A stretch of 64,000 bases of DNA, taken from the NCBI GenBank assembly GCA_012838425.1, contig DUPG01000014.1, forward strand, positions 65,541 through 129,540. The letters are read 5' to 3'. The translations under genes were made by a program, and so were the position numbers. Position 1 is the first letter of the stretch; every line of letters begins with the position of its first letter. Shown here one piece after another: positions 1 to 64,000 of the stretch. Source of the stretch: Clostridiales bacterium. GTDB lineage: Bacteria > Bacillota > Clostridia > Christensenellales > CAG-138. The notes under the pieces are model-generated. The model searched no databases. It saw only the letters and a list, made by a program, of their open reading frames with translations, and had not been told where the DNA came from.

Positions 1-87
1 ACCACGGGCGGCGCGACATACGCGCTGTCAGCAGTCGCAGCCTTAGGTTTAGGCGCAGGAATATTGAGCAAAAAGCGTAAGCAATAG
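1..87 (+). CDS. 3' end of a surface protein with a sortase-type (LPXTG-like) C-terminal sorting signal; 5' end lies outside the window
   Basis: Frame 1 is open from base 1 to TAG at 85-87 and reads TTGGATYALSAVAALGLGAGILSKKRKQ*. That is TG, a hydrophobic helix and a basic tail. A terminator follows. Confidence 0.5.
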   Translation, partial: TTGGATYALSAVAALGLGAGILSKKRKQ

Positions 88-127: not shown

Positions 128-227
128 GTATGTTCACTCAAATAGATTGCTTGACCTCACTAAAACCAGCCAGCTTTTGCCCAAACGAAAAGGGGCATAT
201 CGCCCCTTGATGTTTTGTAATTCAGCT

Positions 228-3068
228 TCACTCGCCAATCGCTTCCGGATACAGCTCCAGTATCAGCGGCAGGTTGTGCAGATACAGGTATGTAAGAGGC
301 TCAGCGAACTCGTCAAGCGTTCTTATCAGGCTGAACTCGACAAAGTGCATGCTTGAATATTTAGGCTCGGGATTTTCGCCGTTAAGCAGATTCAATACGG
401 TATCATCGCTGAACGCTTCTTCTGATTTCTGACTTCCAGCAAAGCTTGGGTTAACAGTTTCTGTCGCGTTCGTAGAATTCTCTATGTAGTAGCAGTTCGT
501 AACGCTCGTTGTAAGCCCATCACCCTGAACATACGCCAATATTCCGCCGCCCTTGCCTATATTCTGAGAAACATAGTTAAAGCCTATGTTGTAGCAGTCG
601 GTTACAGTTATTGTTCCGTTGCAGGCGTATGCTATAATGCCGCCCGAATAGCTCATGCTCTTTATTAAGCCTAAGTTATAGCAGCTATCCACAGTAATTA
701 CTATCGTTTCGGTATATGTAAAGCCTATAATGCCGCCAGCATAGAACCAGCCTGCTGTTACATTGCCTTCATTTGCGCAGCTTGTAATTGTTGAATCAAA
801 CCTCAAATAGCCTGCTATTCCGCCCGCATAGTTGTCAGACGCATTTATATAGCCCGTATTCTTGCAAAGAGTTATGCTTGAAGCCGAAACATCGGTGCGC
901 CCAACAATGCCGCCTACGGATTGATAACCCATTATATTTCCGGAGTTAGTGGATTTTTCAATGCTTAGCGGCGCGTTGCAGTAACCAACTATTCCGCCGA
1001 AAGCTATGTTGTCAAGTATAGGAGTATCAGTGCCTATTGCGCCTGAGTTGCTGCATTCGGAAATCACAAGCGCGGAGGTCGAATTCATATCGCCTATGAT
1101 TCCGCCTATAGAAGCGAGCCCCTGTATAGCGCCCGTATTATAGCTATTTGTTATTGTAGTATCGTTAGTAGCGCTTCCGATTATGCCGCCTGTATAGTTT
1201 GCCGCGTTTGTTATTGCGCCTGTGTTGTACGAAGAATCAATATTAACCGGCGAATCGCTTATGCCGATAATACCGCCTACGCCTGATATGACATGCGTTC
1301 CGGTTCCCGTTACCTGCCCGGCGTTATATGCGCCTGTAATAATGGTTTCAAGGTTGCTTATGCTGCCTATTACACCGCCTACTGTCTGAATACCCGAAAC
1401 CCTGCTTTCGTCGGTAGAGCCGCAATTCTCCATATTAAGTATTGCAGTGGTATCAACACCCTGCGTTGCTATGCCTATTATGCCGCCTACATCGTTCGAA
1501 TCAGCATATACTCTGCCCGAGTTTACACAGTCCTTAACCTCAGCAGAGCTATACAGCGCGCCTATTATGCCGCCCGTATATGCGTATTCCGATAAGCAGC
1601 CGCCGACTGTTCCGCTGTTTTCGCAACGGCGTATGGCTATGTTCTGAGAAGTCTTGCTTATATAGCCCACTATGCCGCCTATGTAGCGCGCATCGCCTTC
1701 GGATAATACCCAGCCCGTGTTCTTGCAGTCGTTAAGCGTTGCGGAAGTGTTGATGAAGCCTATTATGCCGCCCGCGTATCCGTTTGCAGGCGCTAAATCC
1801 TCCTCCACAGTGCTTGCGGTTACCACAACACCCGCGTTGAAGCACCTCAAAAACTTTGTAGTCGCGCCATCAGTCAGCGTTGAGCCTGCAATTGCGCCTA
1901 CATACATTTTTCCGCGAATGTATGAATCGACTATGCCTAAATCCTTTATAGTCGCTCCGTCAACATATCCGAACAGCCCTTCGCGCAGGTTAAGCGGCTT
2001 ATCTATATACAGCCCTCTTATGCTGTGTCCGTTACCGTTGAATATGCCGGAATACGCCAATTCCTTAGTGTCGCTTATGGGGGTCCACATAGTAAATTCG
2101 CCCGTATTCAGCGTACCGTCACTCTTTAATAGATTGCTGTTAAGTATAACATCGCGTATTAGCTTTGCGTTAGAGTCCTTAGGTATGCTCTGATTGTTTA
2201 TGGAGTCTCTAAACCAAAACAGCTGCTGCTTGTTGTGAATCAAGTACTCGTTTGTAATGGGGTCTTGTACCGGTACATCATCTAAAAATACAGCAGTATA
2301 TGTTACCATAGCGTTAGGAAGGTGGTATTTCTCGCCGCCGTAAAGCTCATACGCGGGGTCGTTGCGCGGCATACCGTTCACTTCGCTAAGCTGCCAATAT
2401 GCAAATGATTTATCCCCCAGCGGTGGCGGGTCGGCAGGCACAAAGTGCGTAGATGAATCGTCATAGCTTGATAAAACAACCTCTAAGGTATCGTATCCGT
2501 CAGCACCCTCCACTAAGTATCTGAATGTCGTAATGTATTCCGTAGTCATGCCGTTGCTCGGCGTAACCTTAGGCTCTGCGTATTCGCCTATTAAGAGCTT
2601 GCCTTGATATATTACTGCATATTCAAGCTCTCTGCTCATTTTAGCTGTGATGTTTATATACTCGGGTGGAATGGTATCCGTAGTGTCTAACATAAAAACA
2701 GAGCCGTTCAGCTCGCTGCCAAGCATTGCGAGTACAGCCTCTTGCACTGTGGTATATCCGTCAAACTGGGAGAATCTCTGCGGGTTTACGCGCAAAACGC
2801 CTTCCTTGAAATCATATCCGAAAATATAGTAGCCGGAGTCGCCTTTAACAAATATCACTATTGAAGGCGCTGTTTGCTCTATAAATTGTGCTTTATATGC
2901 TGTAAGGGCTGACTTTGCGTTCGCAAGCGCAGTCTTATCGCCTGTTCCTTCATGCAGATTAGATAGGCGCGGAATGAGCACCGCCGCCAATATACCTAAT
3001 ACTGCAATAACTATAGAAACTTCAACTAAAGTAAAGCCCCTTTTATTTATCTTAACCTTTTCTTTCAT
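228..3068 (-). CDS. Large modular prepilin-type protein: N-terminal cleavage/methylation signal plus GLUG-type repeats (putative pilus-borne adhesin)
   Basis: ATG at 3068 is preceded by GGAGGG. The N-terminus is MKEKVKINKRG|FTLVEVSIVIAVLGILAAVLIP (Gly-1, Phe+1, Glu+5). There is an FNGNGHSIRGL entry motif and about 15 repeats centred on GG(I/V)(I/V)G, encoded at roughly 520-1915. Confidence 0.8.
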   Translation of the reverse strand: MKEKVKINKRGFTLVEVSIVIAVLGILAAVLIPRLSNLHEGTGDKTALANAKSALTAYKAQFIEQTAPSIVIFVKGDSGYYIFGYDFKEGVLRVNPQRFSQFDGYTTVQEAVLAMLGSELNGSVFMLDTTDTIPPEYINITAKMSRELEYAVIYQGKLLIGEYAEPKVTPSNGMTTEYITTFRYLVEGADGYDTLEVVLSSYDDSSTHFVPADPPPLGDKSFAYWQLSEVNGMPRNDPAYELYGGEKYHLPNAMVTYTAVFLDDVPVQDPITNEYLIHNKQQLFWFRDSINNQSIPKDSNAKLIRDVILNSNLLKSDGTLNTGEFTMWTPISDTKELAYSGIFNGNGHSIRGLYIDKPLNLREGLFGYVDGATIKDLGIVDSYIRGKMYVGAIAGSTLTDGATTKFLRCFNAGVVVTASTVEEDLAPANGYAGGIIGFINTSATLNDCKNTGWVLSEGDARYIGGIVGYISKTSQNIAIRRCENSGTVGGCLSEYAYTGGIIGALYSSAEVKDCVNSGRVYADSNDVGGIIGIATQGVDTTAILNMENCGSTDESRVSGIQTVGGVIGSISNLETIITGAYNAGQVTGTGTHVISGVGGIIGISDSPVNIDSSYNTGAITNAANYTGGIIGSATNDTTITNSYNTGAIQGLASIGGIIGDMNSTSALVISECSNSGAIGTDTPILDNIAFGGIVGYCNAPLSIEKSTNSGNIMGYQSVGGIVGRTDVSASSITLCKNTGYINASDNYAGGIAGYLRFDSTITSCANEGNVTAGWFYAGGIIGFTYTETIVITVDSCYNLGLIKSMSYSGGIIAYACNGTITVTDCYNIGFNYVSQNIGKGGGILAYVQGDGLTTSVTNCYYIENSTNATETVNPSFAGSQKSEEAFSDDTVLNLLNGENPEPKYSSMHFVEFSLIRTLDEFAEPLTYLYLHNLPLILELYPEAIGE

Positions 3069-3313
3069 ATTCAGTACCCTCCTGACTGCTATGCAAAAGC
3101 AGTATAATTGTGCAATTACCCATTTAACAGTATCACATTTATTATATAATGTCAAATAAATATGTATAATTGAAAAGTCGAAATGTGTATAAATAATATG
3201 GCTAAAATGGTAAAGCTAATATAGCTGAAGAAAGTGCTTCAGAATTGCTTCCGAAACACCTTCCACAGAACAAACTAATTGCAGTGCAGCAACCTGTTTC
3301 CCTTGCTACTGTA

Positions 3314-3342
3314 ATAATATCACATTCCGCTTTTGCGGTCAA
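3314..3342 (-). promoter_or_regulatory. Candidate sigma-A promoter, far upstream of the pilin-like gene
   Basis: Minus strand reads TTGACC (3342-3337), 17 nt, TATTAT (3319-3314). It would give a leader of about 240 nt. Confidence 0.35.
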
Positions 3343-3428
3343 CAAAAATATTGCTATTATTCGACATTTTTCAAAAAATATCAAAAACAATGCAAACTGC
3401 ACCGCGCCCATGCTACATAATATACTTT

Positions 3429-3998
3429 TTATAGCTTAAATATTACTCCTATTATTGCAGAAGCGGCTATAAAGAATATCGGATGCAGCTTCGTTTTAAT
3501 TATCGGGATAAATAATACAACGGCTAATATCAAGGTTTTATAGTTTATCGCAGAGAAGAAGCCCGAGAAAGAGCCTATCTCATTCAGCGGCACATTAAAA
3601 AATGTAACCTTTGCAATGCTGATTAGCGCCATAACTATCAACGCCATAGTTGCGGGGCGAATAATGTAAAATATTGCTTTTACTTTGGGCGAAGTCTTAA
3701 ACTTGTCCAATATCTTTATTACAAGCAGTATCGTTAAAAGCGAAGGAAGCACCAGTGACAGCGAAGCGACTATTCCGCCCAGCAGCCCGAATGTCAATAT
3801 GCCCACATATGTTGACATGTTTATGCCCAAAGGACCGGGAGTGGACTCAGAAACCGCTACCATGCGCAATATGTCCTCATTCGTGAACCAGCCTGTGCGC
3901 GTGCCCATATCGTATAGGAAGGGCAATGTCGCCAAGCCTCCGCCGAAAGCGAGCAAGCCGGTAATAAAGAACTCGTACGCAAGCTGCAACAATCTCAT
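3429..3998 (-). CDS. Chromate transporter (short CHR family, second half of a pair)
   Basis: 189-aa polytopic membrane protein with GGGLATLP..SESTPGPLGINMSTYVG motifs. Its start overlaps the upstream partner by 4 nt. Confidence 0.8.
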   Translation of the reverse strand: MRLLQLAYEFFITGLLAFGGGLATLPFLYDMGTRTGWFTNEDILRMVAVSESTPGPLGINMSTYVGILTFGLLGGIVASLSLVLPSLLTILLVIKILDKFKTSPKVKAIFYIIRPATMALIVMALISIAKVTFFNVPLNEIGSFSGFFSAINYKTLILAVVLFIPIIKTKLHPIFFIAASAIIGVIFKL

Positions 3999-4561
3999 TT
4001 GTCTGCTCCCTCCTCAAACCTGCGCTTAAATGCTTTCGTGTATGAAAGCCCAAAGCCTATAAGCCCGAAAGCAAGTATTATAAGCACAACGGGAATGCTT
4101 GTAAACAGCGATAGAAGCGTAACTATCACGAATACGCCGAGCGTTAGCTTATCAACTATTGCCTTTTTGCCTAATTTTATTATTGAACTCAGTATCAGTG
4201 CGCACACGCAGGCGCGGATACCGCCAAATGCGTGTACTACTATTTCAGATTCCGCAAATTCAGCTATTATTGAGACAATAAGCGAAATAATTATTATAGA
4301 AGGCAGTATAACTCCCAAAGTCGCGACCACCGCTCCCCAAAAGCCCTTTACCTTATGCCCCACAAATGTAGCTGTGTTTACAGCAATAACTCCGGGAGTG
4401 CATTGGCTTATGGCATAGTAGTCCATAAGCTCTTCATCGGTAATCCATTTGCGTGATTCAATGAGCTCCTTCTGAAACATAGGCAGCATGGCATAGCCGC
4501 CGCCGAAGGTAAATGCGCCTATTTTTGCGAATGAAATAAACAGCTTCCAAAAATCCTTCAT
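3995..4561 (-). CDS. Chromate transporter (short CHR family, first half of a pair)
   Basis: FTFGGGYAMLPMFQKELIESRKWITDEEL..SQCTPGVIAVNTATFVG is typical of ChrA-type proteins. Confidence 0.8.
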   Translation of the reverse strand: MKDFWKLFISFAKIGAFTFGGGYAMLPMFQKELIESRKWITDEELMDYYAISQCTPGVIAVNTATFVGHKVKGFWGAVVATLGVILPSIIIISLIVSIIAEFAESEIVVHAFGGIRACVCALILSSIIKLGKKAIVDKLTLGVFVIVTLLSLFTSIPVVLIILAFGLIGFGLSYTKAFKRRFEEGADK

Positions 4562-7013: not shown

Positions 7014-8129
7014 TTATATCAAATTCTCCGGATTCAAGCACTCCAATTCAGGCAGCACGAATCTCCCGTCTTTCCTTATAAGCACTCCGTCAAAGTACAT
7101 TTCGCCGCCGCCGTACTCGGGAGTTTGTATGCATACCAGATCCCAATGCAATGCCGATTTATTGCCATTGTCTGCGTCGTCATAGCATGAGCCGGGAGTA
7201 AAGTGGAATGAGCCTGCAATCTTCTCGTCAAACAGCGTGTCCTTCATAGGAACGGTAATATAGGGGTTTACGCCTATTGCGAATTCGCCTACATACCTTG
7301 CGCCCTCGTCTATATCGAATATCTTGTTTATGCGCTCCGTATCGTTTGAGGTCGCTTCAACAATCCTGCCGTCCTTGAACTTCAACACTACATTTTCAAA
7401 TGTAAATCCGTCGCGCAAAGAGGGCGTATTGTATGATATAACACCGTTTACGGAGTTATTAACGGGGGCAGTATATATCTCGCCGTCGGGAATATTCATC
7501 TCGCCTGCGCACTTAACAGCGGGTATGCCCTTAATTGAGAATTCCAAATCGGTGCCCTTGCCTACAATGCGTACCTTGTCTGTACGCTCCATAAGCGCTT
7601 TAAGGCTGTCCAACGCCTTGTCCATCTTAGAATAATCGAGGTTGCATACATTGAAGTAGTAATCCTCAAATGCCTCTGTGCTCATGCCCGCCTGCTGCGC
7701 CATAGAGGGCGAAGGATAGCGCATTACAACCCAGCGTGTCTTAGGAACGCGCACCTTGCCATGCACTTCCTCTGAATAGTATTTTGACATTATTTCAAGC
7801 TTCTCAGCAGGCACATCGCTAAACTCAGAAATATTGCTTCCGCCGCGAATACCCACATACGCCTGCATATTGCTCATAAGCTCCGCGTCTAAGCGTGCTA
7901 TAAGCTTTTGCTGTTCAATGTTTGCGCCCATCGCTAATTCCCTTGTAATAGTGGGGTGTGATACCCATACGAAGGGATTTGCGCCTATCCTGTACGCTTC
8001 CTTTACAAGCGCATGCACAAGCTCATCGTTATTGCCCTTTGAATCTATTAGCACGTTTTCGCCCTTTTGCAGCTTAACAGAAAAGTTAAGCAGGTTCTTT
8101 GCCAGCTTTTCAATTCTTGGATCCTTCAT
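7014..8129 (-). CDS. Aminopeptidase, M29 (AmpS/PepS-like) family
   Basis: 371 aa. N-terminus is MKDPRIEKLAKNLLNFSVKLQKGENVLI. C-terminal EGARYVGEFAIGVNP and HFTPGS motifs are typical of thermophilic-metalloprotease M29. Confidence 0.8.
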   Translation of the reverse strand: MKDPRIEKLAKNLLNFSVKLQKGENVLIDSKGNNDELVHALVKEAYRIGANPFVWVSHPTITRELAMGANIEQQKLIARLDAELMSNMQAYVGIRGGSNISEFSDVPAEKLEIMSKYYSEEVHGKVRVPKTRWVVMRYPSPSMAQQAGMSTEAFEDYYFNVCNLDYSKMDKALDSLKALMERTDKVRIVGKGTDLEFSIKGIPAVKCAGEMNIPDGEIYTAPVNNSVNGVISYNTPSLRDGFTFENVVLKFKDGRIVEATSNDTERINKIFDIDEGARYVGEFAIGVNPYITVPMKDTLFDEKIAGSFHFTPGSCYDDADNGNKSALHWDLVCIQTPEYGGGEMYFDGVLIRKDGRFVLPELECLNPENLI

Positions 8130-43894: not shown

Positions 43895-44506
43895 TTATTC
43901 CCTCTTTAATAGCTTATCGAATAATTCGCGCACTGATATGTTCAGCTCGCTTTGTGTGATAGTGTTTTCTATCACCACATCAGCCCTTTTTATTAGCTCG
44001 GAATCCGCAACGCGCGCGTCGGCACGCTTTTTCGCCTGCTCATAGTCAAGCCCGTCGCGCTGCATTATACGCGTTAACCTCTGCTCATACGGCGCGGTTA
44101 CTACCCATATCTCGTCGCAGTGCTCGTCTAAATTCGCTTCAAATAAAAGCGGCGCGTCAAACACCACTATTTTTTCCCCGGATTCAAACGCGGCGACCCT
44201 TATATCCAGCATTCTTCTTATTATATAGGGGTGTGTTATCGCGTTCAGCATTTTCAGCTTTGCTTCGTCGCTGAACACAACTTCGCCCAACCGCCTTCTA
44301 TTGATTATATCATTTTTTTCGAATACTTCCTCGCCAAACTCTTTCCTTATTTGGTCTAACAATGGAGAATTTGGCGCAAGAGCTTCTCTTGCCACAATAT
44401 CGGCAGAAATAACATAAGCCCCTAATTCCTCTAATATCCGAGAAACAGTGGTCTTTCCGCTGCCTGTTGAGCCTGTTATGCCTAATGTGAGCTTATTTTG
44501 CGTCAT
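43895..44506 (-). CDS. coaE: Dephospho-CoA kinase
   Basis: LGITGSTGSGKTT. Located downstream of polA, as in many Firmicutes. Confidence 0.9.
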   Translation of the reverse strand: MTQNKLTLGITGSTGSGKTTVSRILEELGAYVISADIVAREALAPNSPLLDQIRKEFGEEVFEKNDIINRRRLGEVVFSDEAKLKMLNAITHPYIIRRMLDIRVAAFESGEKIVVFDAPLLFEANLDEHCDEIWVVTAPYEQRLTRIMQRDGLDYEQAKKRADARVADSELIKRADVVIENTITQSELNISVRELFDKLLKRE

Positions 44507-47069
44507 GCCAGTTTTCGCCTACATGAACATCGGCTATTAGCGGAACCTTCAGCTTAACCGCGTTCTGCATACAGTCCGCAAGCAGCTTTTTCACTATTTC
44601 AACTTCTTCCTTTGGCGTGTCGATAATCAGCTCGTCATGCACCTGCAAAATAAGCTTTGCTTTTAGATTGTTTTGCTTCAACGCCTCGAAAACCTTTACC
44701 ATAGCCAGCTTGATTATATCTGCCGCAGAACCTTGTATCGGCATATTCTTAGCAACTCTTTCACCGAATGAGCGTGTATTATAATTAGAAGATTTCAGCT
44801 CGTGCATAGCCCTTCTGCGCCCGAAAAGCGTAAGCGCATAGCCCTTTTCATGCGCCTGCGTAACAGTATCGTTCATGTATTTCGCAATACCCTTGTACTT
44901 TGCCAAGTATGAGTTAATGTATTTAGCTGCCTTAGCCCTTGAAATATTCAGGTTCCTTGATAAGCCGAAATCGCTTATGCCGTAAACTATGCCGAAGTTT
45001 ACAGCCTTTGCCTCTCTGCGCTGCTCGGGGGTTACGCTGTTAAGTGGAACATCTGCAATTTCCGAAGCCGTAATAGCGTGTATGTCAATGCCGTTGTTGA
45101 ACGCGTCAATCATCACCTCGTCGCCGCTCATATGTGCCAATACGCGAAGCTCAATCTGCGAATAGTCCGCGTCAACAAGCAGATTGCCGTCAGAAGCAAC
45201 GAAGGCTCTGCGTATCTCCCTGCCAAGCTCTGTGCGTATGGGAATATTCTGTAAATTAGGCTCGGTTGATGAAATCCTGCCCGTTGCGGTTATTGCTTGA
45301 TTGAATGTTGTATGCACCCTGCCCGTTTTCGGGTTTATCTGCTGCAACAGCCCGTCAACAAATGTGCTTTTCAGCTTTGATATGAAGCGGTACTCTATTA
45401 CCAACGGCACAATTTCGTGCTGGTCTATCAAGTTTTCCAATATATCGGCAGAGGTCGAATACCCCTGCGTGTTCTTCTTTCCCGGAGGCAGCTTCAGCTT
45501 TTCAAAAAGCACCATGCCTAATTGCTTCGGGGAAAGTATGTTGAACTCAACCCCCGCAAGCTCAATTATCTTCTTTTCTAATTCCCTGCGCTGCTCCCCG
45601 AACAGATTGCTAAGCTCGTTCAATGTGTTTACATCTACTCTGAAGCCAGTTTTCTCCATATCATATAGCACATGCATAAGGGGAAGCTCAATATCCCAAT
45701 ACAGACTTGAAAGCGAAAGCCTGTCCATCTCCTCCAACATAGGCGCACACAGCAGGAAAAGCGAAAATGCGTCAGCCGCCTTGTTGTTAAGCCTCTCATT
45801 GACAAGCTCTTCTAAATTCTTTGAGGGCGACACCGCGTTAAGCAGGTAGTCAACTATCATAGCGTCGAAATACACATTGTTCAGCGTAATACTCAGCTTG
45901 TCTAATTCGTGCATAAGCGATTTCGCGTCATATACTAACTTCTTTTGCTCCGATTCAAGCACTTCTTTTAACGCCTGCAATGCTTCATAGGTGTTCAAGC
46001 CCGCGTCAAGCAATGTACCGCCCGACTTAACCTTAACGAGTATTTCGCCGTTGCAAACAGACAGCTGCTCTCCGTAATGAAAAGCGATTTTTTCTGTTTT
46101 TGACAGTTTGGGAATGAGCGCTCTTAGCTGTTCGATATCTGATACGATAATTTCTTTTATAGTTATTTCTTGTTCGCTGTTGTCGTCAAATGGCAAAGCA
46201 TTTTTCTCATCGCTGTTGGGAAGCCTTTTCATCAGGCTTCTAAGCTGCAGCTCCGCCATCATGCCGCGCGCGTTCCACATATTGCTTTCGTCAAATGCGC
46301 AATCGTCAATTGACGCGTCTATCGGAACATCAGTATCTATCCTGCCAAGCTTGTAGCTCATCATGGCGCTTTCATAGTTCTCAGCTATTTTCTTTTGCAG
46401 CGCGCCCTTTTCCTCAACAGCTCCACGCTTTAGAACCTCCTCAATGCTGCCGTACGCTTCAAGCAGACGCAAAGCGGTTTTCTCGCCTACGCCGGGAATA
46501 CCGGGCAGGTTGTCTGAAGCGTCGCCCATCAAGCCTTTTAAGTCAACCATCTGCTGTGGGGCAAGCCCGTATCTTTCACGCAATGCGGCTTCGTCATACT
46601 CGACGGTTTCAGAAATGCCGCGCTTTGTATATAGCACATGAGTTTTTTCGTTAATAAGCTGGAAGGAATCCTTATCGCCCGTTACAATAAGCACATCTAA
46701 GCCCTTATCATTCGCTTTTTTTGCCATTGTGCCTATAATGTCGTCGGCCTCATAGCTTTGCAGCTCTAATATTTTAATTCCCATTTCGTTGAGCAGCCGT
46801 CTGATAATATCGAACTGAGTTACAAGCTCGGGAGGTGTGGGCTTTCTGCCTGCCTTGTATTCGGAGTATTCAGAATGCCTGAATGTCGGGCCGGACATAT
46901 CAAATGCAACAGCGATATGCGAGGGCCTGTATTCGACCAGCTTAAAAAGCATGGATACAAAGCCGTAAATAGCTCCTGTGGGCGTTCCTGTTTTCGTTCT
47001 CATATCGGGAAGAGCGTGAAATGCCCTGTGCATTAAGCTGCTGCCGTCTATTAAAATCATCTTGTTCAT
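44493..47069 (-). CDS. polA: DNA polymerase I
   Basis: 5' nuclease domain (LIDGSSLMHRAFHA), polymerase motif A DYSQIELRVLAH, motif B RREAKAVNFGIVYG, motif C QVHDEL. Confidence 0.95.
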   Translation of the reverse strand: MNKMILIDGSSLMHRAFHALPDMRTKTGTPTGAIYGFVSMLFKLVEYRPSHIAVAFDMSGPTFRHSEYSEYKAGRKPTPPELVTQFDIIRRLLNEMGIKILELQSYEADDIIGTMAKKANDKGLDVLIVTGDKDSFQLINEKTHVLYTKRGISETVEYDEAALRERYGLAPQQMVDLKGLMGDASDNLPGIPGVGEKTALRLLEAYGSIEEVLKRGAVEEKGALQKKIAENYESAMMSYKLGRIDTDVPIDASIDDCAFDESNMWNARGMMAELQLRSLMKRLPNSDEKNALPFDDNSEQEITIKEIIVSDIEQLRALIPKLSKTEKIAFHYGEQLSVCNGEILVKVKSGGTLLDAGLNTYEALQALKEVLESEQKKLVYDAKSLMHELDKLSITLNNVYFDAMIVDYLLNAVSPSKNLEELVNERLNNKAADAFSLFLLCAPMLEEMDRLSLSSLYWDIELPLMHVLYDMEKTGFRVDVNTLNELSNLFGEQRRELEKKIIELAGVEFNILSPKQLGMVLFEKLKLPPGKKNTQGYSTSADILENLIDQHEIVPLVIEYRFISKLKSTFVDGLLQQINPKTGRVHTTFNQAITATGRISSTEPNLQNIPIRTELGREIRRAFVASDGNLLVDADYSQIELRVLAHMSGDEVMIDAFNNGIDIHAITASEIADVPLNSVTPEQRREAKAVNFGIVYGISDFGLSRNLNISRAKAAKYINSYLAKYKGIAKYMNDTVTQAHEKGYALTLFGRRRAMHELKSSNYNTRSFGERVAKNMPIQGSAADIIKLAMVKVFEALKQNNLKAKLILQVHDELIIDTPKEEVEIVKKLLADCMQNAVKLKVPLIADVHVGENWHDAK

Positions 47070-57912: not shown

Positions 57913-60819
57913 TCAGCTTCTAACTATAGCATGATTTAGTATTGCCGCGGCGTCGCCTGTGTTTACATTGCCGTCAAGGTTAAAGTCGCCAAGCTCCGGC
58001 TTTATTAGCTCTGCAGCACCTACCACATATCTCAGTATAATCACAGCGTCGCCTGTATTTATTGTGTTGTCAGCATTGGCATCGCCAATCTCCTTATACA
58101 GCGCAGTTATCACCGTATCCTCTATTATGTTAGAGAAGTCCTTATCCCAGCCCCAGAACACATGGCCTTCGCGTACAGGATCTTGCGGAGCTACGGCGGA
58201 TTTATTCTTCTCGACATATTGAATATCGATTACCCTTCCGTCATAGTCAACGAAGGTTACGGTATATGTTACAGAAGTAATCTCATATATAGGTCTAACT
58301 TCTAAATCGCTGCGCACCTCATTGAAGGGCTTATCCCAGCCAACGAACCTATAGCCCGGGCCATAGTTAGGAAGCGTAGGCTCAACGGCTGCAGCACCAT
58401 GCGGCACATTCTGAGTGGAAATCACATTGTCGTCCTTGTCGAAGAACTTAACTACATAGGTTTTTCCGGGTATTATCACATCTATATTGTCAAGCCAAGC
58501 CGCATCGTCATTCGCGTTTTGGCTCATATCCTTAGTGTAGCCCCATTCAAAAGTATAAGTGCCGTCATAGGGGATTGTATAAGTAACCGTTGTCCAATCC
58601 CTAACACCGCTAATATCTGGAATACTCGGAATAGCAGCGCCGTTCACTCTGAAATATAGATAGTCCCAGCGAACCTCGCACGATACCTTCCAGTCGAACG
58701 AAACTACAGTGTTTGCAGGCAGATATATGCTTTCAAGGCGAATGTTTGAGTTGCTCGGTGAAACGCCCGTATTCGTGCATTTAACTGCCATTCTGTTATT
58801 CTGCATATCGGGACGCCAAGGATATGTTTCGTGGTTCTTGAGGTTCAGCGTACCACCCGTTGCGTTGATAGCCAGCGGGAAGTCCGCATATACTACATTT
58901 ACTGCGACATTCTTTGAATATCCGCCGTCAACAGTAGTTACGGTTATAACAGTAGTGCCCTCAGCTACGGGTGATACCCAGCCGGTTTCGTCAACCGTTG
59001 CGACTGATGTATCCGCGCTTTGATAATTCAAAGCCTGATTAGTGGCGTTGTAGGGCAATACATGCGCCTCAATGCGTACAGGGTTAGAATCGGTGTATAG
59101 GTTTATTACGGTAGTTTTTACTTCAATGCCGGTTACCTTCAAATCGCCTAAGCTCGTTATCACGCTTGTTCCGAAATAAGTAACAGGATTTGCTTCGTCT
59201 GTATAGTCTATAACTGTGCATGTAATCTGCGCAGTGCCCTTTGAATGTGCTACAACCAAGCCGCTTTGGTCAACAGTAGCCACATTCTCGTTATCGCTGC
59301 GCCATTCGTATGTGTAATTGTTCGCGCTCTCAGGCTCTATTACTAACGCAAGCTGTACCGCGTTATTGTTATACAGCTCATAGCTTGCAGGCGAAACAGA
59401 TACGCCAGCTATGGCAATTCGCGGAATCTGTAATGAGAAATTACCGTTGCCCTGATATTTCATTCTTGCGTTGGGATAAGTATATGGGTCGTAAGAGCCT
59501 GCTTGCTGGAAGCCTATCTGCATCGCTTCCTGGAAGGTATAATATCTGTCTTCGGAAGGATGCTTTGATACCATAGCGCCCCAAACAGCAGCGGATAACT
59601 TGAAGTCGTATGTAAACGAAACGCTTTCGTCATAGCCGACTACAAGGAGTGCGCCTAAGTTGCACAAGGGAGTTGAAATTGCGGTGGTTTTCATGCCTAA
59701 GCAGATAACCAAGTACACCATTGTGCCGGGGAGAGTTTTTCCTGCGGCTTGGAAATACTTCGTAAAGAAGCTGCCCGTAACGCCTACATCTGATGAACCT
59801 GTGGATATTATATGTCCTGCGGACAAGTCAGTATTATATTCATAATCTGCGGTGTTGCCCTTGCGCATTATCATATAAGATTTGCCGCCCGAGGTTGTGC
59901 CATGGCTGTCTATTAAGAAAAAGCCATAATCAGCTATGTTTATTATGTTGCCGGGGTAAGCAGCGGATTCCTTCAAATCGTTTACAATGCCGCCTGTTAT
60001 GTTGCATACATTCTGAGCGATTGTAGAATAGAATTCGTTTGCGAAATCGCCCATAGAGGGTGAGTTTCTATACGGTCTGAAAAGTATAAAGTCAGGGTCG
60101 GCGGCTGTAACGGTTTCTACTTTGTTCTTTTGAAGCCCGTCCAAGAAAAACTGCAATGCGGCGTCAGCGTCGCCTGATTTGCGGTCTAACGCGCTGTAAA
60201 GCGTATAAGCATTTGGTATTCCCGATTTCAGCATAAAGCTGAATGAGTAGTCGCTCTCAATCTCAATAGCTTCTGTTTCGGGATTATTCGCAACGAAGTC
60301 GTAAATTGTATTGAATATCTCGTCGTTCGACAATCCTTTTGCTTTCAGTTCGCGCTCCAAGCTCTCAATTTCAAGCCATAGTGTATCGTGCTGCTTGATT
60401 TCTGCTTCTGTTGCGAGTCTATAATAGGTTATACTCCACTCGCCGACCACACGATTGTTAAGCCACGCTTGATATGTAACCTCTGTGCGCGCTTTATCTG
60501 TCTTTTTCAGAGATACATTCTGCGAATATACTCCGTCATTCGCAATCGCATCGCCGCCTTTGCCGTTGTCGTAGAGCTTTGCGACTAAATTTCCGCTGTC
60601 GTCAACAACTCTTATAGCCAATGGAAAAAGCGATGTCGTATCCGCCGATACAGAAAAAGTAACGAAGTGTTCCTCATTGAGCGTCAGTTCAGTCTTGCTC
60701 GCGTGGAAGTCCGTTACTTTCGTCATTTCTGCCGCAGTTGCCGTAGAAGCAAACAAGGGCAGAGCTATGAAAGAAAAAGTAAGAATCAAGGCAAAAAACT
60801 TAAAAAGTAACTTTTTCAT
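57913..60819 (-). CDS. Secreted multidomain protein with Big_2 Ig-like domains, B-repeat modules and a C-terminal type I dockerin
   Basis: Signal peptide present. Two Big_2-like segments (..VATVDQSGLVVAHSKGTAQITCTV.., ..VATVDETGWVSPVAEGTTVITVT..). B-repeats (..GYRFVGWDKPF.., ..GHVFWGWDKDF..). Dockerin duplicated loops DANADNTINTGD and DFNLDGNVNTGD. Confidence 0.85.
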   Translation of the reverse strand: MKKLLFKFFALILTFSFIALPLFASTATAAEMTKVTDFHASKTELTLNEEHFVTFSVSADTTSLFPLAIRVVDDSGNLVAKLYDNGKGGDAIANDGVYSQNVSLKKTDKARTEVTYQAWLNNRVVGEWSITYYRLATEAEIKQHDTLWLEIESLERELKAKGLSNDEIFNTIYDFVANNPETEAIEIESDYSFSFMLKSGIPNAYTLYSALDRKSGDADAALQFFLDGLQKNKVETVTAADPDFILFRPYRNSPSMGDFANEFYSTIAQNVCNITGGIVNDLKESAAYPGNIINIADYGFFLIDSHGTTSGGKSYMIMRKGNTADYEYNTDLSAGHIISTGSSDVGVTGSFFTKYFQAAGKTLPGTMVYLVICLGMKTTAISTPLCNLGALLVVGYDESVSFTYDFKLSAAVWGAMVSKHPSEDRYYTFQEAMQIGFQQAGSYDPYTYPNARMKYQGNGNFSLQIPRIAIAGVSVSPASYELYNNNAVQLALVIEPESANNYTYEWRSDNENVATVDQSGLVVAHSKGTAQITCTVIDYTDEANPVTYFGTSVITSLGDLKVTGIEVKTTVINLYTDSNPVRIEAHVLPYNATNQALNYQSADTSVATVDETGWVSPVAEGTTVITVTTVDGGYSKNVAVNVVYADFPLAINATGGTLNLKNHETYPWRPDMQNNRMAVKCTNTGVSPSNSNIRLESIYLPANTVVSFDWKVSCEVRWDYLYFRVNGAAIPSIPDISGVRDWTTVTYTIPYDGTYTFEWGYTKDMSQNANDDAAWLDNIDVIIPGKTYVVKFFDKDDNVISTQNVPHGAAAVEPTLPNYGPGYRFVGWDKPFNEVRSDLEVRPIYEITSVTYTVTFVDYDGRVIDIQYVEKNKSAVAPQDPVREGHVFWGWDKDFSNIIEDTVITALYKEIGDANADNTINTGDAVIILRYVVGAAELIKPELGDFNLDGNVNTGDAAAILNHAIVRS

Positions 60820-60960: not shown

Positions 60961-61950
60961 ATGTCAAGGTGTTCTAATCAGAAGCTGAAATTGCTAAATG
61001 TTCAAAAAATACTATTAGAGCAAACAGACGAGCAGCATCCTATAAGCGTTGAGGAAATAATAAATAAGTTAAAAGCGTTAGGCATTGAGGCAGAGCGCAA
61101 AAGCATATATGACGATATTAAGGCGTTGACAGATTTCGGCATGGATATTCAGCATCAGCGCCAAAAACCCTCAGGCTATTATGTTTACTTGCGTGATTTT
61201 GAGCTTGCGGAGCTTAAAATGCTTGTTGATAGCGTACAGGCAGCCAAGTTTATAACCGAAAAGAAAACAAAAGAGCTTATTACAAAGCTTACAGGCCTAT
61301 GCAGCAAGCACGAAGCCAATTTATTAAACAGGCAGCTATATGGGGCGAATCGCGTAAAAAGCGACAACGAACAGATTTTTTATAATATAGATGGCATTTA
61401 TAACGCGATAAATCAGGATAAAAAGATTTGCTTCAAGTATATTGAGTTCGATTTGAACAAGCAAAAAAAGTTCAGAAGAAACGAAAAAATGTATTGCGTG
61501 AGTCCGTTCGCGCTTATTTGGGAGGACGAGCGCTATTACTTGCTTGCATACGACAGCGAAGCCGAAATAATGAAGCACTATCGCGTGGATAAGATGGAAA
61601 GCATCGATATTGCAGAAGAAGAGCGCGAGGGTAAAAAGGTATTTGCCGAAATAGATGTTGCGGAATACACCAAGCGTAATTTCAGCATGTATAGCGGCGA
61701 ATTAACAAAGGTGCGTATGCAGTTCCATAAATCCCTTATAGGCATAGTAATAGATAAGTTTGGAAAGGGTATTATGACCCACCAAGTTTCCGACGATTAT
61801 TTCGAGGTATGTGTAGAAGTCGGCGTAAGTCAGGTATTTTATTCATGGGTGTTTACATTCGGCGATAAGGCAAAAATCATACACCCCGAGCATGTAGTCA
61901 ACGAAGCGAAGGAAATGCTAAAAAGAATGTTGAATCAATATGAAAGCTAA
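60961..61950 (+). CDS. HTH + WYL domain transcriptional regulator
   Basis: N-terminal wHTH (ISVEEIINKLKALGIEAERKSIYDDIKAL). WYL core (CFKYIEFDL...VSPFALIWEDERYYLLAY...HYRVDKM). Confidence 0.8.
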   Translation: MSRCSNQKLKLLNVQKILLEQTDEQHPISVEEIINKLKALGIEAERKSIYDDIKALTDFGMDIQHQRQKPSGYYVYLRDFELAELKMLVDSVQAAKFITEKKTKELITKLTGLCSKHEANLLNRQLYGANRVKSDNEQIFYNIDGIYNAINQDKKICFKYIEFDLNKQKKFRRNEKMYCVSPFALIWEDERYYLLAYDSEAEIMKHYRVDKMESIDIAEEEREGKKVFAEIDVAEYTKRNFSMYSGELTKVRMQFHKSLIGIVIDKFGKGIMTHQVSDDYFEVCVEVGVSQVFYSWVFTFGDKAKIIHPEHVVNEAKEMLKRMLNQYES

Positions 61951-64000
61951 TACTTTATTATAGCTGTTTTAGTGTTTTTGAAAGCAGTATCGCTTGTTCT
62001 CGCGTACTTTGGCACTAATGCGCGTTTCAGCTTATTGCAGCCCATAAAAGCCATATCGCCTATGCTCTCAATGCTTTTCGGAAGGTTTACTTCCTCTAAT
62101 TTTTCACATCCCGAAAACGCCTGCTCATAAATTGCCTTCAAACCGTCGTTAAGGCGTATTGCTCTCAATTCTATACATTCTGAAAAAGCGTTTTCGCAAA
62201 TGGTTTCAATAGTGACGGGCAATTCGACATATTTCAGCTTCTTACATTCTGAAAACGCCGCTTGTGGAATTGCTGTAATGTAGCAGCTTAATTCAAGTGT
62301 GTGCAGGCTTGCGCAATCTGAAAACGCAAATGCGCCCAATTCTTTGACGCTGTTCGGTATGGATACTTCCTCCAAGCTCGTACAATGCTCAAATGCGCCG
62401 CGTAATATAGCTCGCACACCGTTATTTATCGATAGCGTCTTTAACCCTTTGCAGCGGCTGAACGCATAGCAGTCTATGGTTTTTATGTTGCTGTGAATAG
62501 CAAGCGTTTGCAGCGACGCGCAGCCGAAGAAAGCCTCTTTGCCTATTGAGTTCAGTTTATCAGGCAGCTTTACCTCTTTTAGCGAGGTGCAGCAGAAGAA
62601 TGTACCGTCGTCGATAGCTGTCAAGTTAATGGGCAATATAGCCTCTTCAAGCCTCGTACAGTCAGAAAAAGCAAACCTGCCTATTTTCTTAATGCTGTTC
62701 GGAATTGAAATGTGTTTCAGCGCAGTGCATTTAGAGAAGCAGCAATCCTCAATTTCGCTCAATCCGTTTGGGATATTAACCTCCTCTAATGCGCGGCAGA
62801 GATAAAAGGCTTGTCTGCCTAACTTCTTCAAAGTAAATGGAAGCTCAGCCGCCCGCAGCTTTTCACAGCTGTAAAACGCTTTATTGCCTATTCTCTCAAC
62901 ATTTATGGGGATATGTATTTCACGCAGATTTATACAGTCGCAAAACGCGCTGTCGCCAATGGCTTTTAGCGTCGTAGGCAAGTAGGCGCTTTCAAGTGCG
63001 CGACAGTTTAGAAACATATTGTCGCTTATTTTAGCACAGTAAGGCGGTATTTCAATAGCCTTCAACGCGGTACAGCTTGCAAAAACACCTTCGCTGAAAG
63101 CTATATCGCTTATGGGCAGCTTAATCTCAGTCAGACTTCTACATTCAGAAAATGCGTACTTGCCAATTTTCTTGACCTCTTGCGGCAAATGCACTGTTTT
63201 CAGCGCCTTACAGCCCAAAAATGCCCTTTCGCCTATGGTTTTCAGCTCGGAATCATAAGCAAACTCTATTTTAGTCAGGTTTTCGCATTCAATAAATGCT
63301 CTTGCGCTTATTGAAATAAGCTTTGCGTTTACATAAACCTCCTGCAAAGCGGTACACCTTGCAAAAACTGCTGAAGCCAGCTTTGTCAAGCTCCCGGGCA
63401 AAGTGATTTTAGTTAGTGAACCACAGTCAGAGAATGCGCCTGTTCCGATAAAGTCTATATTTTCGGGCAGGTTTATTTTCGTCAGCTTAGCGCAGCCCGA
63501 AAACGCATTCTTCGCAATAGTAATAAGGCTATCGGGCAGAGCAACGCTTTCAAGCTGTTCACAGTTTAAGAAAGCGTCCTCATCAATCGTTTCCACTCCA
63601 TTTGGAATAGTGATGTGTCTTATTCCGCTTTCAGCAAATGCGCTTTTTGAAAGCTTTTCAAGCGTATTAGGCAATTCAATTTCATACAGGCTTTTGCAGC
63701 CGTAAAAAGCGTTGCTGCCTATTTTGTGCAGCTTGCTTGGCAGCTTTACAAACGACAGCCTTATACATTCGGAGAACAAACTGTTAGCGCATGAATGCAA
63801 CCCCGAATTCAGTACAGCGCTTGTAAGCTCGGTACATTTTGAAAACGCCCCCTCGCCTAAAAGCGACAGGCTTGTCGGCGCCTCGATTTTCTGAACAGCC
63901 GTATTGTAAAAAGCGTATGCGCCTATCGCCTGCAAGCCATGCGGCAGTATGATTTCGCGTAAAGCCTTACAGTTTGAGAATGCCCCGTCCTCAATCTTTT
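61947..64000 (-). CDS. BspA-type leucine-rich repeat (LRR_5) protein; 5' end lies outside the window
   Basis: Tandem ~23-aa repeats (..I.IP.sV..Ig..AF..C..L..v..). The frame stays open from the track start to base 64000 (..KIEDGAFSNCKALREIILPHGLQAIG..). Confidence 0.85.
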   Translation of the reverse strand, partial: KIEDGAFSNCKALREIILPHGLQAIGAYAFYNTAVQKIEAPTSLSLLGEGAFSKCTELTSAVLNSGLHSCANSLFSECIRLSFVKLPSKLHKIGSNAFYGCKSLYEIELPNTLEKLSKSAFAESGIRHITIPNGVETIDEDAFLNCEQLESVALPDSLITIAKNAFSGCAKLTKINLPENIDFIGTGAFSDCGSLTKITLPGSLTKLASAVFARCTALQEVYVNAKLISISARAFIECENLTKIEFAYDSELKTIGERAFLGCKALKTVHLPQEVKKIGKYAFSECRSLTEIKLPISDIAFSEGVFASCTALKAIEIPPYCAKISDNMFLNCRALESAYLPTTLKAIGDSAFCDCINLREIHIPINVERIGNKAFYSCEKLRAAELPFTLKKLGRQAFYLCRALEEVNIPNGLSEIEDCCFSKCTALKHISIPNSIKKIGRFAFSDCTRLEEAILPINLTAIDDGTFFCCTSLKEVKLPDKLNSIGKEAFFGCASLQTLAIHSNIKTIDCYAFSRCKGLKTLSINNGVRAILRGAFEHCTSLEEVSIPNSVKELGAFAFSDCASLHTLELSCYITAIPQAAFSECKKLKYVELPVTIETICENAFSECIELRAIRLNDGLKAIYEQAFSGCEKLEEVNLPKSIESIGDMAFMGCNKLKRALVPKYARTSDTAFKNTKTAIIKY

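Follow-up and report, generated by a model that had tools for sequence, protein, structure and literature searches.

Modular pilins, whose N-terminal part is a pilin module (IPR012902) joined to a domain not specific to type IV pilus biology, have been surveyed on a large scale: more than 1,200 of them were found in 264 architectures, and the most extreme multi-domain example had 860 amino acids (aa) (PMC8179133, 2021). The pilin module is seen there as the carrier and the grafted module as the effector. In this work we analysed a gene for a 946-aa protein that combines a prepilin signal with a beta-helix made of GLUG repeats. The gene, referred to as the prepilin-GLUG gene, lies on the minus strand at 228..3068 (stop codon included) of a 64,000-nucleotide stretch of contig DUPG01000014.1 from a Clostridiales bacterium; this whole stretch is called the window, and positions given without a contig label refer to it. 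The observations described below make it rather likely that the gene's product is a modular type IV pilin displaying a beta-helix binding module, its processing and assembly being what we infer.

The combination of the two domains has been recorded before. Dataset S1 of the survey lists the architecture IPR012902-IPR011493 for six proteins, labelled 'predicted peptidase ... M26' (PMC8179133). These proteins have the same domain combination as the one studied here. IPR011493 is presumably the Pfam GLUG entry, which is consistent with the 'M26' in the survey's label. The peptidase part of that label is probably an over-reading in the present case, because the 946-aa protein has no M26 catalytic domain. 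The N_methyl-GLUG architecture is thus already catalogued and no member of it has been characterised; literature searches on GLUG together with pilin, on 'GLUG motif' and on IPR011493 returned nothing beyond PMC8179133.

The closest known systems are PilB, with a vWA module, and PilC, with a lectin module, of Streptococcus sanguinis (PMC8179133, PMC9934059). Like the protein described here, they belong to a monoderm host and have a class III signal, a small pilin module and a bulky grafted module proposed to serve adhesion. The genes for PilB and PilC, however, belong to the pil locus, and both proteins have been proven to be part of the pilus, whereas the prepilin-GLUG gene is an orphan for a putative pilin. 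Its cargo, a GLUG beta-helix of about 600 aa, is approximately twice the size of the known modules, and it is joined to the pilin part by a spacer region of about 150 aa instead of a short loop. The alpha1 helix also differs, containing Gly14 and Pro22 as in a major pilin, unlike PilB and PilC.

Large minor pilins with extra beta-rich domains are represented by ComZ of Thermus thermophilus, in which this domain is a beta-solenoid, and by CofB and TcpB of type IVb pili; all are thought to be ligand binders located at the tip (PMC8179133). In contrast to the prepilin-GLUG protein, they are found in diderms, are encoded together with their machinery and are smaller, and their cargo folds are unrelated to GLUG. 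The extra domain of ComZ is inserted in the pilin head, whereas the module studied here is appended. Right-handed beta-helices of the GLUG type, as in our protein, are present in the N-terminal domain of the M26 IgA1 proteases (6xja, 7uvk) and in BACOVA_03286 (3n6z). Compared with the IgA1 proteases, the prepilin-GLUG protein lacks the metalloprotease domain, the HExxH motif, the LPXTG signal and the G5 region, and has the module mounted on a pilin instead.

Prepilin signal, alpha1 helix and putative pilin head

Translation from the ATG at 3068-3066 yields a 946-aa product which opens with MKEKVKINKRG/FTLVEVSIVIAVLGILAAVLIP, the slash marking the predicted cleavage site. This N-terminus, MKEKVKINKRG/FTLVEVSIVIAVLGILAAVLIPRLS, is a class III signal with Gly-1, Phe+1, Glu+5, Gly+14 and Pro+22. 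The leader MKEKVKINKRG (residues 1-11, 3036..3068, minus strand) has a net charge of +4 and is predicted to be cut by prepilin peptidase after Gly11. It is followed by the alpha1 helix (residues 12-61, 2886..3035, minus strand), whose hydrophobic part, alpha1N, has the motif FTLVE.SIVIAVLGILAAVLIP and contains Glu+5, Gly+14 and Pro+22, while the distal part, alpha1C, is amphipathic. Residues 12-33 are the sole strongly hydrophobic segment of the 946-aa protein.

The class III signal MKEKVKINKRG/FTLVE had been noticed in an earlier, sequence-only reading of the window, which called for a search with hidden Markov models (HMMs). Both relevant models scored above their curated cut-offs: Pfam N_methyl with 29.3 bits (cut-off 21.2) at residues 8-31, and TIGR02532 with 30.5 bits (cut-off 16.3). 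The five signature residues (Gly-1, Phe+1, Glu+5, Gly+14, Pro+22) were invariant among diverged relatives showing 28-34% identity. A profile was built from the first 125 residues of the query and its relatives. It matched about 20 solved pilins and pseudopilins, all of them major subunits, across the whole of alpha1 with E values from 4e-15 to 4e-5, including geopilin, Myxococcus xanthus PilA, MshA, PAK pilin, gonococcal pilin and S. sanguinis PilE1, as well as Thermus PilA4/5, GspG and PpdD. Solved major pilins were likewise matched by phmmer using the single query sequence.

Two structure models were obtained, one for the full-length protein (AlphaFold2, 45-sequence alignment, mean predicted local distance difference test score, pLDDT, of 79) and one for residues 1-125 (12-sequence alignment, pLDDT only 63.6). 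In both, a helix spanning residues 14-61 is followed by a three-stranded sheet, and in the full-length model a long beta-helix comes further on, so that the alpha1 helix and beta-helix anticipated from the sequence were both seen, with a head of low confidence between them. This putative small pilin head (residues 62-120, 2709..2885, minus strand; pLDDT 55-77) has strands at 69-75, 80-86 and 91-94 and a conserved hairpin, VIFVK..G.YIFGY. A homologue search with the N-terminal 270 aa returned five matches only; one of these, P0123, is a classical pilin of 167 aa that shares the head hairpin of the query.

The beta-helix cargo

Between the pilin head and the cargo there is a low-confidence spacer (residues 121-211, 2436..2708, minus strand), which is poorly conserved and has pLDDT values below 50; as judged from the model, these approximately 90 residues are probably flexible. 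The next element is a small beta domain (residues 212-265, 2274..2435, minus strand) with strands between 220 and 262, which by eye resembles a Listeria-Bacteroides repeat. The sequence-only reading had described this segment as B-repeat-like. The likeness stands as far as visual inspection and the alignment to P0066, a protein bearing Flg_new, are concerned, but the Flg_new model itself gave no match at E<=1 in the 946-aa query.

Most of the protein is a right-handed beta-helix (residues ~270-872, 453..2261, minus strand), identified by the Glug HMM and by Foldseek and modelled with pLDDT mostly above 90. The Pfam Glug score was 40.1 bits, well on the accepting side of the 20.5 cut-off, as the sequence-only reading had led us to expect. 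Two further details of that reading were recovered in the beta-helix region. The entry motif FNGNGHSIRGL was located at residues 343-353 (2010-2042, minus strand), within the beta-helix. In agreement with the roughly 15 repeats centred on GG(I/V)(I/V)G proposed for 520-1915, a pattern scan for G[GA]xx[GA] counted exactly 15 centres, which follow one another at intervals of 28-36 aa between residues 391 and 845 and are encoded at ~534-1898. Since Tandem Repeats Finder detected no tandem repeat at the DNA level in the gene, the GLUG repeats are old and diverged. With N_methyl and Glug both above their cut-offs in one polypeptide, and forming separate modules in the model, the protein has the domain content by which modular pilins are defined.

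In Foldseek searches of the PDB the best matches of the beta-helix were BACOVA_03286 (3n6z, E 3e-5) and the N-terminal beta-helices of two IgA1 proteases, the Gemella and the pneumococcal one. Matches to tailspikes, pertactin and lyases were weak, the E values for tailspikes, chondroitinase B and other beta-helix enzymes being 0.01-2. The best conserved residues of the beta-helix are structural, being the Gly, Ile, Asn and Cys of the rungs. The HExxH motif is absent from the 946-aa protein and no model of the M26 catalytic domain matched it; Peptidase_M26_N scored 12.7 bits, well under its cut-off of 27.7, and the ZmpA match was also weak. On these grounds (no HExxH, no catalytic domain), the identity of the protein as an M26 IgA1 protease was rejected.

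The C-terminal tail (residues 873-946, 231..452, minus strand) is predicted with low confidence to form short helices. There is neither an LPXTG motif nor a C-terminal hydrophobic or transmembrane (TM) segment in the 946-aa protein, and as it has no sorting signal it was also rejected as a sortase substrate.

Relatives of the protein and of its module

At E<=1e-3, homologues of the beta-helix module are spread over 28,538 representative protein clusters, and the GLUG beta-helix family is a vast group of essentially uncharacterised surface proteins. Many of the top matches of the beta-helix (P0246-P0394) are proteins of 1,000-7,000 aa in which the module is present in several copies, with up to 26 matched stretches. 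Diverse anchors accompany the module. Among the best 120 homologues we found about 18 with a dockerin, 12 with LPXTG, 5 with SLH domains, 2 with a type IX secretion system (T9SS) C-terminal domain and 10 with a prepilin signal; among the top representatives at 50% identity, the prepilin signal occurred only once in 149.

The prepilin-bearing homologues fall into two groups. Group one comprises P0006 (1,236 aa), P0010, P0066 (1,304 aa) and a protein of a Clostridia metagenome-assembled genome (MAG) from goat rectum (L012), and has an alpha1 of the query type together with the hairpin VIFVK..G.YIFGY. Group two consists of proteins of about 620 aa (P0099 to P0120). On a contig from a Hadza gut metagenome (L092:5691-11884) the 627-aa prepilin/GLUG-like protein P0120 is encoded approximately 3 kb from a 491-aa N_methyl protein; no pilus machinery was found within 10 kb. 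Orphan large prepilins recur in small clusters.

Giant prepilins in Lachnospiraceae pilus loci

A scan of a genome collection revealed, among the matches listed, prepilin/GLUG-like giants of 2,958-3,287 aa inside or beside pilus genes in three Lachnospiraceae genomes. In an Acetatifactor MAG (L011:364-16552) the order is a pilin, T2SSF, PilM/PilN, T2SSE and two pilins, directly followed by an N_methyl protein of 3,125 aa in which GLUG-like repeats are present. The locus of Murimonas intestini DSM 26524 (L037:7988-22846, NZ_JANKBI010000011.1) encodes a 3,287-aa protein with N_methyl at 32.4 bits and Glug at 22.9 bits; next come two unknown open reading frames (ORFs), then three N_methyl pilins of small size and a prepilin peptidase of the Peptidase_A24 family. 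The same gene order, with a 2,958-aa prepilin and PilD, was seen in an Anaerostipes MAG (L063:2002-17627). The Murimonas protein would be a putative pilin of about 350 kDa in a cultured type strain.

In these giants a prepilin signal is coupled to GLUG-like repeats, and the repeats are homologous to those of the prepilin-GLUG protein; BLASTP aligned the query with the Murimonas giant in several registers, at 27% identity along about 450 residues (E 2e-11). They differ from it in being about three times as long and in lying next to minor pilins, PilD or a full set of pil machinery. Their alpha1 helices are also of another type: those of the giants in pil loci lack Pro22 and are minor-pilin-like, whereas those of the orphans, with Gly14 and Pro22, are major-pilin-like.

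In the cultured isolate Lachnospiraceae bacterium AC2029 (L028:9923-21143) we observed three genes in tandem, the first for a pilin of 238 aa and the other two for N_methyl proteins, one of 2,077 aa and one of at least 1,338 aa. The 2,077-aa protein bears six DUF285 (BspA-like) repeats, and from this tandem it follows that giant modular pilins also exist with other types of cargo.

Start site and evidence for a functional gene

Measured from the first possible start, the ORF extends over 228..3155 (minus strand). In agreement with the sequence-only reading, the start at 3068 was preferred to a TTG at 3155. A ribosome-binding site (RBS), AGGAGGG, can be read off the sequence at 3083-3077 (minus strand), 9 nucleotides before the ATG; gene callers picked this ATG on all six public contigs shown; and in relatives the leaders before GFTLVE are only 7-11 residues long. 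A promoter-like site, identified by consensus match only (TATACA, 16-nucleotide spacer, TATAAT; 3141..3168, minus strand), ends on the 3' side of the alternative TTG. Translation from the latter was rejected, as it has no RBS, the promoter-like site lies downstream of it and the leaders of the homologues are short. A terminator-like hairpin with a T-run is located at 190..208 (minus strand), 20 nucleotides past the stop codon. With this RBS, promoter-like site and terminator-like hairpin, the gene has the look of a monocistronic unit, and 3068 is its most likely start. Directly 5' of it there is a 69-aa hydrophobic, Cys-rich ORF (3202-3411, minus strand) with no Pfam match, which was called as a gene on six of the six contigs shown.

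The 946-aa protein was found unchanged on eight public contigs, and the six copies compared differed from the window at 3-4 nucleotides, all of them synonymous. Relative to P0002, a 77% identical protein whose sequence is incomplete at its contig end, the ratio of nonsynonymous to synonymous differences per site (pN/pS) was 0.20; dN/dS was about 0.06, with dS saturated. As far as these sequence comparisons go, the gene is under purifying selection. Together with the identical protein on eight contigs, this rules out a pseudogene or a spurious ORF. Recent horizontal import was also rejected, the G+C content of the gene (46.5%) being similar to that of the window (44.7%) and of the neighbours (44-48%).

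Genomic neighbourhood and host

The ORFs of the window encode housekeeping, glycolysis and transport functions as well as sporulation and germination proteins (YqfD, GerA/B/C). No other database entry exceeds 79-80% identity to the window PGK (79% for the best entry that bears a name), and entries from Clostridia and Christensenellaceae reach about 66%; the host is therefore placed among the uncultured, spore-forming Clostridia. Other surface proteins of the window are a 968-aa Big_2/Flg_new/Dockerin_1 protein (57913-60819, minus strand) and a 662-aa BspA-type leucine-rich repeat protein (61947-63935, minus strand). The Dockerin_1 domain of the former implies a cohesin-dockerin (cellulosome-like) surface system in the organism.

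The neighbour on the other side of the terminator-like hairpin is a convergent gene for a 247-aa protein, part of which lies in the window (1-80, plus strand) and which continues in L001:10325-11068 (minus strand). Its product comprises a signal peptide and a small beta domain, a stalk rich in Pro and Thr, and SPTTG followed by a TM segment and KKRKQ. From this sequence it is plausible that SPTTG is a sortase signal of the Clostridioides (S/P)PXTG type and not LPXTG. The sequence-only reading had named a sortase-anchored protein as upstream neighbour; a sorting-type signal (SPTTG-TM-KKRKQ) is indeed present, but the gene is downstream and convergent. Farther to the left of the window edge (L001:13386-14316), two YajC-family genes (118 and 117 aa) are located side by side, followed by a Peptidase_M23 gene.

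Discussion

The idea of a giant modular type IV pilin, put forward in the sequence-only reading, is supported by the pilin HMMs, the homology of alpha1, the GLUG beta-helix and the existence of giants within pil loci. In the mechanism we envisage, the prepilin would insert in the membrane via alpha1N, and a PilD-type peptidase, whose gene would be elsewhere in the genome, would trim the 11-aa leader after Gly11 and methylate Phe1. The pil machinery, provided by unlinked genes, would then extract the subunit and dock alpha1 in the core of a type IV pilus. Clostridia commonly possess pil operons, and it is frequent for pilin genes to be located away from these (PMC3244431). Incorporation would be of low abundance, at or near the tip, or lateral if the spacer permits. 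Whether modular pilins are incorporated laterally or at the tip was explicitly left open in the survey (PMC8179133), and according to a review the tip-capping subunit lacks Glu5 (PMC10191384). Because the prepilin-GLUG protein has kept Glu5, Gly14 and Pro22, and has a probably flexible spacer of about 90 residues, lateral as well as near-tip incorporation is conceivable. The beta-helix would in this way be shown beyond the Gram-positive wall as an adhesin module, which would probably bind glycans or else other surfaces of a habitat such as the gut or one of fibre degradation. A binding role is most likely for the beta-helix, judging solely by its fold and by the anchors that accompany the module. 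Literature searches on GLUG yielded no binding partner of the module.

Several observations weigh against a pilus subunit. No pil or com genes were found among the 43 large ORFs of the window with Pfam annotation, of which 40 were labelled by a Pfam scan and three (3429-3998, 3995-4561, 7014-8129) via the gene table of the public contigs, while ORFs 44493-47069 and 60961-61950 and those below 150 aa were outside the scan; a six-frame motif scan of the window picked up neither another prepilin motif nor a Walker A of the T2SSE type. To this extent the earlier statement that the window has no pil or com genes holds. Genes for prepilin peptidase or pilus assembly were likewise absent from the 64-kb window and from about 9 kb past its left end. 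The relatives P0006, P0066, P0099 and P0120 are also orphans amid housekeeping genes in all readable contexts. The link to the Lachnospiraceae giants is one of analogy of architecture, not orthology, since the similarity is confined to the repeat module. The low-confidence head model (pLDDT ~64) gave no significant pilin match when compared with the PDB by Foldseek. Size is a further difficulty. To our knowledge, no pilin much above half the size of the 860-aa survey example has been seen to assemble, and the mature subunit of 936 aa exceeds any pilin experimentally proven to assemble. The protein, for which the sequence-only reading had noted an 'unusual size', exceeds the survey extreme, but beside relatives of up to 3,287 aa it is not extreme.

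The orphan position and the bulk of the cargo would also be compatible with other roles of the N-terminus. It could be a membrane anchor or a short pseudopilus-like stub, for which PilD cleavage is optional and which never enters a long pilus; the protein would stay tethered by alpha1N and present the beta-helix inside the wall or just beyond it. Neither the query gene nor its closest relatives ever adjoin pilus machinery, alpha1N is the only hydrophobic segment, a very large cargo is hard to pack in a filament, and the cargo module is found on interchangeable surface anchors, to which the prepilin-type N-terminus could add one more tether. We nevertheless think this unlikely. There is strict conservation of Gly-1, Phe+1, Glu+5, Gly14 and Pro22, and the whole 50-residue alpha1 is homologous to that of major pilins which assemble; for a plain membrane anchor none of this would be required, and a charged Glu in a transmembrane helix is costly unless it is used for processing or assembly. 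It is also a matter of general knowledge that a membrane-tethered beta-helix of about 7 nm would barely clear the Gram-positive wall, and related giant prepilins are embedded in pil operons. Alternatively, the class III signal could serve export and release, the protein being cut by prepilin peptidase and then set free or carried as a loosely bound cargo of a type IV filament or of a system like the type II secretion system (T2SS). Archaea have non-pilin proteins with class III signals, and such non-filament substrates provide a precedent; the orphan status of the gene, the large size and modular cargo, and the probably disordered spacer of about 90 aa as a possible site of proteolytic release point in the same direction. 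On the other hand, the hydrophobic alpha1N stays on the protein after cleavage, so that even the mature form would be drawn into the membrane or a filament, there is no evident release motif, and the conserved alpha1C and head hairpin suggest an interface between subunits. This makes release very improbable in our view, and it is the conservation of pilin-specific residues that disfavours both the anchor and the released form.

The function of the cargo can also be seen differently, as the beta-helix could be an enzyme displayed on the pilus, either an M26-type protease, as the InterPro-based label of the survey (PMC8179133) implies, or a polysaccharide lyase or hydrolase. M26 IgA1 proteases contain GLUG motifs, the weak Peptidase_M26_N (12.7 bits) and ZmpA matches and the Foldseek hits to tailspikes, chondroitinase B and other beta-helix enzymes (E 0.01-2) could be taken in this sense, and many homologues have dockerins, as cellulosomal enzymes do. 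The best fold matches, however, are to the non-catalytic N-terminal beta-helix of the IgA1 proteases, those to enzymatic beta-helices are not significant, the Peptidase_M26_N score is far from its cut-off, and the top-conserved residues are structural. As HExxH is missing and there is no M26 catalytic domain, or any other catalytic domain, an enzyme is disfavoured and we give this possibility little credence. Of the two functions proposed in the sequence-only reading, 'adhesin or enzyme', the adhesin is retained on account of the fold, and the enzyme has found no support in a catalytic motif or domain. We therefore continue to favour a modular type IV pilin with a beta-helix binding module.

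A more general proposal, which we regard as conceivable but doubtful, is that in gut and rumen Clostridia the prepilin signal is a general route for the display of beta-helix or repeat cargo of 600-3,300 aa, used beside sortase, dockerin and SLH anchoring. Pil machines would then extract and polymerise subunits of 100-350 kDa, and orphans with a major-pilin-like alpha1 would be recruited in trans and decorate the filament laterally by means of their long flexible spacers, with tip capping no longer their only possible place.

Taken alone, the 946-aa protein mainly confirms the published concept of modular pilins with one more uncharacterised example. The Lachnospiraceae giants are the more interesting by-product, and putative giant pilins of this sort are encoded by two cultured strains, Murimonas intestini DSM 26524 and Lachnospiraceae bacterium AC2029. 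Should the 946-aa protein prove to be assembled, pilus subunits would be known to span a wider range of sizes, and the widespread GLUG beta-helix would join the modules that pili can present.

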